Source of the DNA: Gammaproteobacteria bacterium
GTDB lineage: Bacteria; Pseudomonadota; Gammaproteobacteria; Eutrophobiales; Eutrophobiaceae
Direction of reading: 5' to 3'
DNA: 64,000 nucleotides
NCBI GenBank assembly: GCA_965200295.1
Contig: OZ241347.1
Span: 3,390,093-3,454,092 of the forward strand
Under the pieces are notes generated by a model, which searched no databases, was not told the origin of the DNA, and saw only the letters and a program-made list of their open reading frames with translations. Positions 45,564 to 46,294 of this stretch are shown one piece after another. A program made the translations under genes and the position numbers. Position 1 is the stretch's first letter, and every line of letters begins with the position of its first letter.

Positions 45564-46127
45564 TCAGGCAAGCAAACTGAGTCCGGCAATAATAATGCCG
45601 GTATAAAGCAAACCGCTGCCCACGATCCATTTGATCATCCGTATCTCCTGTTTTGCCATATTGGTTTCCAACTTTGCCATGTTGGTCTCCAACTTTGTAA
45701 TATCAGCCTTCGTCGCCATATTGGCTTCGAGAACTGCAAGGTCAGACTTTGTTGCCATGTCTGCAATATCAGCCTTCGTCGCCATATTGGCTTCGAGAAC
45801 TGCAAGGTCAGACTTTGTTGCCATGTCTGCAATATCAGCCTTCGTTGCCATATTGGCTTCGAGAGCTGCAAGGTCAGACTTTGTTGCCATGTCTGCAATA
45901 TCAGCTTTCGTCGCCATATTGGCTTCGAGAACTGCAAGGTCAGACTTTGTTGCCATGTCTGCAATATCAGCTTTCGTCGCCATATTGGCTTCGAGAACTG
46001 CAATATCAGACTTTGTTGCCAGTTGTGGTAGCTGGGACACTTGAACAACATCCTCTGCGGCCAGGGTGGCCTTTTCTTCTGACGCACCGGCGTCGATGAA
46101 TGCTCTGTAAAGGGCTGTACTGCTCAT
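45564..46127 (-). CDS. DUF1640-like coiled-coil repeat protein with C-terminal membrane anchor (paralog a)
   Basis: Start at MSSTALYRAF. Five tandem 21-aa units (KADIADMATKSDLAVLEANMAT), then ...MIKWIVGSGLLYTGIIIAGLSLLA. N-terminal 45 aa and upstream 120 nt nearly identical to 60590..61057. Confidence 0.6.
   Translation of the reverse strand: MSSTALYRAFIDAGASEEKATLAAEDVVQVSQLPQLATKSDIAVLEANMATKADIADMATKSDLAVLEANMATKADIADMATKSDLAALEANMATKADIADMATKSDLAVLEANMATKADIADMATKSDLAVLEANMATKADITKLETNMAKLETNMAKQEIRMIKWIVGSGLLYTGIIIAGLSLLA
45680..46000. repeat. in-frame 63-bp tandem repeats (about 5 copies) inside the DUF1640-like gene
   Basis: Repeated ttggcttcgagaactgcaaggtcagactttgttgccatgtctgcaatatcagccttcgtcgccata units, contiguous with no spacers. 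Confidence 0.75.
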
Positions 46128-46294
46128 TCGGGTAGCCTCCATAAGTGGTTATTATCTGTTTCGTTCCAGGTCGGAAAGCCTTTTCACTCCCGTCCTTTCA
46201 TGGTCAAGCTACCACTCGTTGCCAGGGGTGTCAATAGTATTTTTGTATAATACTTTCGTATAAAACAGGGCGCGTGCGTTTCAGGTGTGAGTCG

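Follow-up and report, generated by a model that had tools for sequence, protein, structure and literature searches.

Bacterial proteins of the DUF1640/MCUR1 type have, to our knowledge, no assigned function, and what is known of alpha/beta coiled coils comes mainly from engineered constructs. When 2 or 6 residues are inserted into the heptad repeat, a trimeric coiled coil breaks into a short beta-layer, which has the motif [aliphatic]-A-T-K-[polar]-[DE] and sits after c or g positions, with both nonads and hexads having been described (Hartmann et al., 2016, PMC4786415). The tandem MATKDDIAN nonads of Tcar0761 are a solved alpha/beta coiled coil, and DUF1640 membrane proteins bear the beta-layer motif at the start of their stalk (PMC4786415). 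MCUR1, as Adlakha et al. (2019, Structure) is cited in PMC6801532, has an architecture of head, beta-layer neck, stalk and transmembrane segment, as do CCDC90B and prokaryotic relatives. The present work concerns two paralogous genes, termed copy A and copy B, which lie on opposite strands of a 64,000-nucleotide stretch of DNA from a Gammaproteobacteria bacterium (assembly GCA_965200295.1, contig OZ241347.1, positions 3,390,093 to 3,454,092; the whole of this stretch is referred to as the window), and which resemble these proteins in several respects.

The reading that we favor, with a probability of roughly 0.7, is that A and B encode head-neck-stalk-anchor proteins of the inner membrane with a variable alpha/beta stalk, that their loci undergo gene conversion, and that both genes have a conserved promoter and leader. 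They would be small, tail-anchored proteins of the DUF1640/CCDC90-like superfamily, in which a helical head of 35 residues is followed by the beta-layer neck LATKSD, a stalk of MATK(A/S)D modules and one C-terminal transmembrane helix. The modules would supply the two insertions by which a trimeric coiled coil becomes an alpha/beta coiled coil, the structure solved for Tcar0761, and their number would set the distance of the head from the membrane. If a rise of about 1.5 Å per residue is assumed, a very rough estimate of stalk length is 18 nm for A and 14 nm for B. In-frame gain and loss of modules together with interlocus gene conversion would leave conspecific strains with different stalk alleles, and each copy of the family would be under its own sigma-70-type promoter with a 5' untranslated region (UTR) of roughly 70 nt. 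By analogy with MCUR1/CCDC90B, our guess is that the head serves on the cytoplasmic side of the membrane as a spacer or scaffold.

Head, neck, stalk and anchor

A sequence-only reading of the window had reported A and B as an inversely oriented pair of DUF1640-like, membrane-anchored coiled-coil proteins, and the two open reading frames (ORFs) are indeed real (Table 1). Copy A is taken to begin at 46127 because an upstream ATG at 46142 overlaps the Shine-Dalgarno (SD) sequence. In a pairwise alignment the two copies become similar about 10 nt before the TTGACA of the -35 box and remain so as far as the stop codon, with unrelated sequence on either side, and the 5' 297 nt are 89% identical within the window. 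The proteins are identical over their first 41 residues and differ at residues 42-43 (IA vs. ML), which falls short of the 45 shared codons that had been reported. The hydrophobic anchor was found at the end of both, IKWIVGSGL(L/I)YT(G/S)IIIAG(L/F)SLLA, and was judged by inspection of a 23-residue C-terminus that has R/K just before it and nothing after it. Because neither protein has a signal peptide, and because the anchor comes just after basic residues and is the last part of the chain, the head and stalk are predicted to be cytoplasmic, and we infer a homotrimer in this orientation.

Two kinds of module make up the stalk: MATKADIxD, with 9 residues encoded by 27 bp, and MATKSDLAVLEAN, with 13 residues encoded by 39 bp. 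Tandem Repeats Finder reports for copy A a 66-bp period (22 aa) with 4.9 copies and 97% matches, and for copy B a mixture of 27-, 39-, 66- and 93-bp periods. The in-frame arrays and the 27-bp unit described previously were therefore recovered, but the 63-bp (21-aa) unit was not, the true periods being 27, 39 and 66 bp. Split at each ATK, the order of units is 13,9,13,9,13,9,13,9,13 in A and 13,13,9,13,9,9,13 in B, such that all 16 ATK-to-ATK spacings in the two proteins are either 9 or 13. The same two values recur when 120 listed homologues are considered together with A and B (9 in 195 cases and 13 in 78), where 83% of 338 spacings equal 7n+2 or 7n+6. As 9 is 7+2 and 13 is 7+6, the two module sizes follow from the beta-layer insertion rule, and this gives a structural reason for DNA units of 27 and 39 bp. 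In MATKADIAD the beta-layer falls after a c position and in MATKSDLAVLEAN after a g position, both of which are permitted registers; the 9-residue module would accordingly be described as a nonad (heptad + 2) and the 13-residue module as a hexad plus heptad (heptad + 6). The best match of copy A among solved structures (phmmer against the PDB) is chain A of 5APZ, the GCN4-Tcar0761 construct (E 1e-11, query residues 83-172), and the second is 6H9L (E 2e-3). Matches to leucine-rich-repeat proteins in the PDB (Rab family protein, internalins) were discarded as artefacts of repeat composition. The stalk of A and B thus appears to be a beta-layer (alpha/beta) coiled coil, which is a narrower description than plain coiled coil.

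The relationship to DUF1640 proteins holds at the level of the superfamily. A comparison by hhalign of the head-plus-neck profile with the heads of PF07798-positive bacterial proteins gave a probability of 94.3% (E 9.6e-8, 38 columns), a score to which the neck motif contributes. The neck occupies residues 36-41 in A and B, and in 26 subfamily members no change is seen at L36, A37, T38 or K39, and D41 is nearly invariant (at least 90%). Relative to the PF07798 gathering score of 33.5 bits, P0013 (29.4 bits) and P0023 (21.5 bits), which belong to the subfamily, fall short, and two homologues at a greater distance, P0020 (41.2 bits) and P0017 (33.7 bits), are at or above the threshold. Three results speak against this picture of class and fold: the Pfam scan gave no PF07798 match for A or B at E <= 1; the AlphaFold2 model of the monomer is a single long helix in which beta-layers are not seen, although a monomer cannot show them; and a Foldseek search of that model against the PDB returned nothing informative (best E 2.1). 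The trimer and the beta-layers are therefore predicted from homology. Pfam and NCBIfam scans gave no significant match for either copy, and sub-threshold matches to internalin, PTR and TusA were rejected as repeat-driven and of low complexity. By their sequence, A and B appear to be DUF1640/CCDC90-like head-neck-stalk-anchor proteins of a known kind, with an alpha/beta coiled-coil stalk.

The third short relative noted near copy A exists as an ORF on the plus strand (Table 1). It scores 13 bits against PF07798 (E 0.095) and reaches a probability of 94.9% against PF07798-positive heads (hhalign), and it has a canonical DUF1640-type head, one FATKAD neck and a C-terminal anchor. This 68-aa protein is a separate, canonical DUF1640-type member that is only weakly related to the A/B subfamily. 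The small protein that had been called XhlA-like, encoded by ORF 17953-18240 on the minus strand (95 aa), lies outside the family: it has no XhlA match in Pfam, its sole Pfam match being DUF7337 at E 7.6e-4, below the cut-off, and its hydrophobic segment is N-terminal, not C-terminal, and accompanied by a coiled coil. The same ORF matches PHROG 1009 (E 1.6e-7).

Stalk alleles and exchange between the two loci

The number of repeats had been proposed to vary, and it does so among conspecific contigs whose flanks are 98.8-99.3% identical to the window. At the B locus four allele lengths occur in strains with flanks 98.8-99.9% identical: 155 aa in the window and L001, 98 aa in L023, 132 aa on eight contigs from at least six samples (L032-L037 shown) and 123 aa in L038. 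The A locus encodes 187 aa in the window, 121 aa in L021 and 136 aa in L022. The clearest example is the pair L032/L038: over 5.5 kb (99.9% identical) just 3 mismatches and 2 gaps separate the two contigs, one of the gaps being exactly one 27-bp unit. Within the arrays, the units of copy A are mutually 96-97% identical at the DNA level, which indicates a recent expansion of the 66-bp double unit, and those of copy B are just 77-90% identical, such that the array of B is the older one; between the A and B arrays the identity is 75-85%.

Sequence also moves between the loci. A-type and B-type bases alternate in runs in L022 (A locus) and L023 (B locus), and L032 and L038 have at the B locus an A-type 3' end along with 70 nt of A-type 3' flank. 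In the comparison of conspecific contigs at the B locus, the 5' part of the gene is 92.8% identical vs. 99.3% for the flank. The mosaic sites and the A-type 3' end at the B locus are the pattern expected of gene conversion between paralogs combined with gain and loss of modules. Hence modules are gained and lost in frame in steps of 27, 39 or 66 bp, and the A and B loci exchange sequence; slippage or unequal recombination would be the mechanism by which the module number changes.

If repeats had collapsed during the short-read assembly of metagenomes, differences in length would arise without any difference between strains, and two of the contigs concerned, L021 (612 bp) and L023, are indeed short k141 MEGAHIT assemblies that stop near the repeats and may be collapsed, which counts against their alleles. 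As an explanation of the length differences in general this is unlikely. The difference between L032 and L038 is one 27-bp unit in an array of 54-81 bp, which is shorter than a sequencing read and makes collapse improbable there, L022, L024, L002 and L031 differ in the order and sequence of their units and not only in number, and L002, L003 and L031 are on megabase contigs, suggesting long-read assemblies.

A second alternative is that A and B are contingency proteins of the cell surface, with repeats that allow frequent switching of expression or epitopes (phase or antigenic variation). In-frame repeats that differ between strains, in a multicopy family with gene conversion, are what such proteins would have, but several observations make this very unlikely. 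All units are multiples of 3 bp, which makes on/off switching impossible, and no repeat change was found that shifts the frame or the promoter spacing, the 27-, 39- and 66-bp units being within the coding sequence (CDS) and the promoter spacer being the same in A and B. The lack of a signal peptide and the position of the anchor at the extreme C-terminus predict a cytoplasmic stalk. Moreover, the 132-aa allele is identical on all eight of its contigs, and strains with 98.8% identity share the 155-aa allele without any change. With units that all preserve the reading frame and a 132-aa allele that stays the same from sample to sample, the locus is not phase-variation-like, and the variability proposed earlier stands as a difference between conspecific strains. 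The constancy of the 132-aa allele also tempers the variable-stalk reading itself, in that the alleles do not change very rapidly.

The series of stalk-length alleles documented here for conspecific strains and the exchange between the two loci are new. As the alleles of this natural series have the same head and anchor and from 2 to 10 modules, the role of stalk length becomes directly testable, and the two chromosomal loci provide a case of concerted evolution and allele turnover between 99%-identical flanks.

Promoter and leader

A 33-nt promoter stretch and a 53-nt leader core are identical in A and B (Table 1), each occurring exactly twice in the window and not at all in shuffled sequence. 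The promoter proposed previously, TTGACA-17-TAGCTT, is thus the same in both copies, but its TAGCTT is a weak -10 box that agrees with TATAAT at 3 of 6 positions and was missed by a consensus scan. TGG precedes it, as in the TGn of an extended -10, and related loci have TAGATT at the -10 position together with a perfect TTGACA and a 17-nt spacer. The common leader was confirmed, with 78 nt from the -10 box to the ATG in both copies. A covariance model built from 25 leaders and searched against 176 kb found 27 sites, all of them before intact or degraded genes of the family and none elsewhere in the window, and promoter and leader precede every A/B-family gene recovered from sponge-associated gammaproteobacterial metagenome-assembled genomes (MAGs). 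The leaders are of two types, the window type AAAGGACGGGAGTGAAAAGGCTTTCCGACCTGGAACGAAA and a commoner type ACATGGGCGGAAGTGAAnCAGCTTCCGGACCTGGAACGTAA.

Such identity might reflect recent duplication and gene conversion only, with no function of the promoter and leader themselves, and gene conversion between A and B is evident, as is the similarity of their 5' parts in the window. This is highly improbable because the same leader is found in about 10 genomes in which the family proteins are just 36-77% identical to copy B, and because leader identity is 0.67 to 0.9 while 4-fold synonymous sites are saturated at 0.30, the value of 0.67 being that for the gene pairs with saturated sites. In one such comparison (winB vs. 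L002) the leaders are 0.925 identical and synonymous sites match at 3 of 11 positions. The saturated sites also speak against a very recent horizontal transfer of the cassettes among these MAGs, by which the duplication reading might be rescued. The leader is conserved where synonymous sites are saturated and recent duplication is therefore no explanation, the opposite of what the sequence-only reading had named as its refutation. We conclude from these comparisons that the leader is functional and under selection.

All leaders can form a 9-bp stem-loop a few nt from the predicted transcript start, which falls about 7 nt after TAGCTT, near 46199 in A and 60518 in B, and variation is concentrated in the hairpin loop. 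The stem is retained through G-U changes, the differences between the two types being G-U-preserving changes plus a bulge, and one-sided changes in the stem are mostly to G-U. When the leaders are refolded from the predicted start site, the 5' hairpin is the only structure common to them, and no pairing is predicted for the invariant box. GGA occurs several times in the leader, for instance in the SD and in the invariant UGGAAC box. A z-score of -2.7 for the copy A leader folded from the -10 box was discounted, as the helix used promoter bases that are not transcribed, and a long-range helix CUGGAAC / GUUCCA around the start codon was rejected as a general feature since it is confined to a subset with S-I/V-P-L codons.

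The case for an RNA element is weakened by four observations. In the stem, 93% of cells are paired and 0 pairs are changed on both sides; the covariation score was reached by 377 of 500 shuffles (the RNAalifold covariation term is -0.34); the copy B leader folds no better than shuffled sequence (z = +1.2); and conservation is in the primary sequence. A metagenome scan yielded 4 loci only, too few for a stronger covariation test. Rfam 15 gave 0 matches in the window at the gathering score, and at E <= 10 only chance matches of small nucleolar RNAs and long non-coding RNAs on the leader. What stands of the earlier suggestion of a cis-regulatory RNA is therefore a conserved leader with a foldable 5' hairpin and a possible RNA role, with no compensatory pairs and no Rfam match.

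The serious rival is a DNA operator, in which a dimeric transcription factor bound to the palindromic CGGAAG-N6-8-CTTCCG and TTCC-N5-6-GGAA, a short way 3' of the start site, would repress all copies, the RNA hairpin being a by-product. The conservation of primary sequence with 0 compensatory changes is what an operator predicts, the element is directly 3' of the -10 box, which is a common position for a repressor, and the invariant box is not predicted to pair. On the other hand, the half-sites of the window type are asymmetric (CGGGAG vs. CGGAAAG), the differences between types (A-U to G-U, G-C to G-U and a bulged U) keep the RNA stem and break the DNA palindrome, the spacing of TTCC and GGAA shifts from 6 to 5 nt, and no regulator gene is linked to the loci. 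An operator is thus possible but, on balance, rather unlikely, and action of the leader at the level of RNA seems somewhat more likely. In that case the 5' stem-loop, the single-stranded CCUGGAACG box and the strong SD might act post-transcriptionally to co-regulate all copies, through mRNA stability or through binding of a protein or a small RNA.

A more far-reaching version, which is doubtful, holds that the 5' stem-loop and CCUGGAACG box are a new, family-specific cis-regulatory RNA, with a 12-codon upstream ORF (uORF) in one leader type that is possibly leaderless, and that this RNA co-regulates a multicopy set of alpha/beta coiled-coil 'ruler' proteins whose stalk length is actively diversified, through module indels and paralog conversion, in populations of sponge symbionts. 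If this is true, how far from the membrane the tethered head works would be under selection. The uORF, MGGSExxSGPGT followed by a stop, is present in 17 of 17 commoner-type leaders (L004-L020, L028; e.g., L007:2440-2478; one has 14 codons), and its ATG is about 7 nt after the -10 box, such that it may be leaderless. Eight window-type leaders, including those of A and B (46128-46205 and 60512-60589), have AAG or AGG for the ATG, no stop and no uORF. As the uORF lacks third-position bias, the peptide itself seems not to be selected. Whichever mechanism applies, the conserved, family-specific promoter and leader are a candidate new motif, and so compact and strongly conserved a 5' UTR could be a new regulatory one.

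Neighbourhood, hosts and comparison with known systems

Table 1. Positions in the window of the two gene copies, their parts and nearby elements.
Feature	Position	Strand	Remark
Copy A promoter-like site	46206..46234	-	-35 TTGACA 46229-46234; -10 TAGCTT 46206-46211; 17-nt spacer ending TGG
Copy A 33-nt promoter stretch	46202-46234	-	TTGACA-17-TAGCTT+GACC, no mismatch to copy B
Copy A leader	46128..46205	-	78 nt, from -10 box to ATG
Copy A leader core	46146-46198	-	53 nt, no mismatch to copy B
Copy A hairpin-capable segment	46169-46195	-	GGACGGGAGTGAAAAGGCTTTCCGACC
Copy A leader box	46161-46168	-	TGGAACGA
Copy A SD	46136-46140	-	GGAGG
Copy A CDS	45564..46127	-	ORF, 187 aa; predicted head, beta-layer neck, repeat stalk, C-terminal membrane anchor
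Copy A head	46023..46127	-	residues 1-35, MSSTALYRAFIDAGASEEKATLAAEDVVQVSQLPQ; then neck LATKSD
Copy A tandem array	45699..46021	-	66-bp double unit (39 + 27 bp; ATKSDLAVLEANM + ATKADIADM) x 4.9
Copy A C-terminal anchor	45567..45635	-	hydrophobic, IKWIVGSGLLYTGIIIAGLSLLA, end of protein
Copy B promoter-like site	60483..60511	+	identical to that of A; -35 60483-60488; -10 60506-60511
Copy B 33-nt promoter stretch	60483-60515	+
Copy B leader	60512..60589	+	78 nt; hairpin 60522-60548; box 60549-60556; SD 60577-60581
Copy B leader core	60519-60571	+	53 nt
Copy B CDS	60590..61057	+	ORF, 155 aa
Copy B mixed array	60692..60954	+	39- and 27-bp units
Copy B C-terminal anchor	60986..61054	+	IKWIVGSGLIYTSIIIAGFSLLA
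Terminator-like hairpin	61107..61130	+	GC-rich, between copy B and convergent RTX gene
Third, distant relative	46897..47103	+	68 aa (79 aa from ATG at 46864); without the shared leader
IS630-family insertion	59251..60403	-	about 80 bp upstream of copy B promoter; context, not part of the unit
MITE-like repeat copies	4743-4904, 24861-25022, 34259-34374, 18537-18622, 22699-22741, 8530-8567		further copy at L022:1716-1872

The window is ordinary chromosome, with gcvH, asnS, EF-P and a DNA_topoisoIV-domain gene, scattered insertion sequences (ISs), toxin-antitoxin pairs and RTX genes. This bears on the possibility that A and B are prophage remnants, that is, lysis or accessory membrane proteins of the XhlA or holin-partner type. 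Two PHROG families without an assigned function, 17872 and 30808, give matches with E values between 1e-12 and 1e-15, and toxin-antitoxin genes and IS elements are nearby, but the PHROG matches cover the low-complexity-like repeats and the anchor and not the head, the flanks are housekeeping genes, and relatives of the head were absent from both IMG/VR and the GenBank phages. A phage origin of this sort is accordingly given hardly any credence. Two pattern matches in IMG/VR were due to chance (cmsearch E 0.16 and 0.78).

The IS630-family element is missing from the conspecific contigs L001, L023 and L038, and in another species the orthologous gene has a different, rve-type IS (L031:1202-2385) at its -35 box, and from these two insertions the intergenic spot appears to attract such elements. 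An invertible segment between the inverted copies is unsupported, as no recombinase is linked to them and L001, L022, L023 and L038 have collinear flanks; in a related species the arrangement differs, being convergent around one RTX gene. Genes for large proteins with RTX calcium-binding repeats are located at 35626-40116 (+) and, adjoining copy B, at 61156-63930 (-), and the two share an inverted segment of 279 nt that is 90% identical (39643-39921 vs. 61342-61620). Family loci with RTX neighbors include L001, L002, L003, L007, L012, L018, L019, L025, L028, L031 and L038. RTX genes are beside family genes in 9 of about 22 loci and fill about 11% of the window (estimated from ORF coordinates). 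Given the abundance of RTX genes in these genomes, the association does not clearly exceed background.

Directly after copy A is a toxin-antitoxin pair (44775-45445, +) of a RelE-like toxin and a helix-turn-helix antitoxin, and in conspecific strains (L032-L038) ParE/ParD is directly downstream of the B-locus gene. A dispersed, AT- and hairpin-rich repeat of about 160 nt, which resembles a miniature inverted-repeat transposable element (MITE) and has the ends GGTAACCTCTAAAAA / TAGAGGTGACC, is found downstream of the A-locus gene in a related strain (L022) and not at that site in the window. A direct repeat of about 900 bp, 84-95% identical (40817-41774 and 43941-44704), flanks a NYN-domain gene (41888-42514) and a DDE transposase (42810-43850), and may delimit a composite or duplicated mobile segment. 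Two direct copies of about 1.7 kb, 85-90% identical (16158-17896 and 25145-26931), appear to be paralogous regulator genes, the ORF that the first overlaps (16533-17813) having a translation that resembles a transcriptional activator of the response-regulator type.

When 5.8 billion proteins were searched, 486 relatives were found. The closest have the near-invariant head MSSxALY(K/R)AFI(D/E)xGASE..A(A/S)EDV(V/I)QVSQLPQLATK and a hydrophobic anchor, both constant, with a segment of variable length between them, such that total lengths run from 75 to 190 aa. This head defines a narrow subfamily, in which only 25 representative clusters among 1.84 billion reach E <= 1e-10, and its hosts are about nine 'Gammaproteobacteria bacterium' MAGs, one of which is named APA_bin_93, and two GenBank whole-genome shotgun metagenomes, with at least 2 to 5 family copies per genome that are sometimes in tandem. 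The hosts are called sponge-associated because the metagenomes with accession prefixes MKWU01 and LXNI01 are ones that we take to be sponge metagenomes. In L003 (2501-3150), L019 (2501-) and L020 (2501-), which are MAGs with megabase contigs, the gene is frameshifted just after the AAEDV codons by small deletions that are not homopolymer slips, and these copies are likely to be pseudogenes of a birth-and-death family. In one MAG (L009:2361-2731, L010, L017) a family-type head, LSSTALYKAF..., without an ATG or a leader of its own, follows in the same reading frame on the anchor encoded by a canonical DUF1640-type gene, which could be a fusion or a decayed tandem pair. Two family genes (L004:2361-2400, L005) begin directly 3' of an apparent tRNA 3' end (GGTTCGAATCC...CACCA).

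Changes in rod length by recombination of in-frame repeats are familiar from repeat-variable coiled-coil spacers such as the streptococcal M proteins, which differ between strains in the same manner. M proteins are surface-exposed, dimeric and selected by the immune system, whereas A and B are predicted to be cytoplasm-facing, trimeric alpha/beta coiled coils in symbiont genomes. Coiled-coil molecular spacers are the subject of a review (PMC5082667). For the leader, the counterparts are 5' stabilizing stem-loops and SD-linked elements such as the ompA 5' UTR and the GGA-containing leaders bound by CsrA. The likeness is in a hairpin a few nt from the predicted 5' end and in several GGA motifs, but the A/B leader has no Rfam match, no covariation and no known partner.

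Among proteins, the DUF1640/CCDC90-like group (PF07798; MCUR1, CCDC90B) has in common with A and B a helical head, an x-A-T-K-x-D neck, a coiled-coil stalk and a single C-terminal anchor. A and B differ from it in that they are below the Pfam threshold, with a head that forms the narrow subfamily MSSxALYxAFIxxGAS...DVxQVSQLPQLATK, in that the beta-layer motif recurs 8-10 times along the stalk, and in that each gene has a dedicated, conserved leader. The stalk is closest to Tcar0761 of Thermosinus carboxydivorans, through its tandem MATKxDIAx nonads and the match to the solved construct 5APZ, and the same register rules apply, a beta-layer after c giving a nonad and one after g a hexad (PMC4786415). 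Tcar0761 itself has 14 near-perfect nonads between long heptad segments, with no membrane anchor reported (PMC4786415). In A and B, unlike Tcar0761, the nonads alternate with 13-residue modules of hexad plus heptad, and the stalk would be combined with a membrane anchor, a DUF1640-like head and a number of modules that varies from strain to strain.

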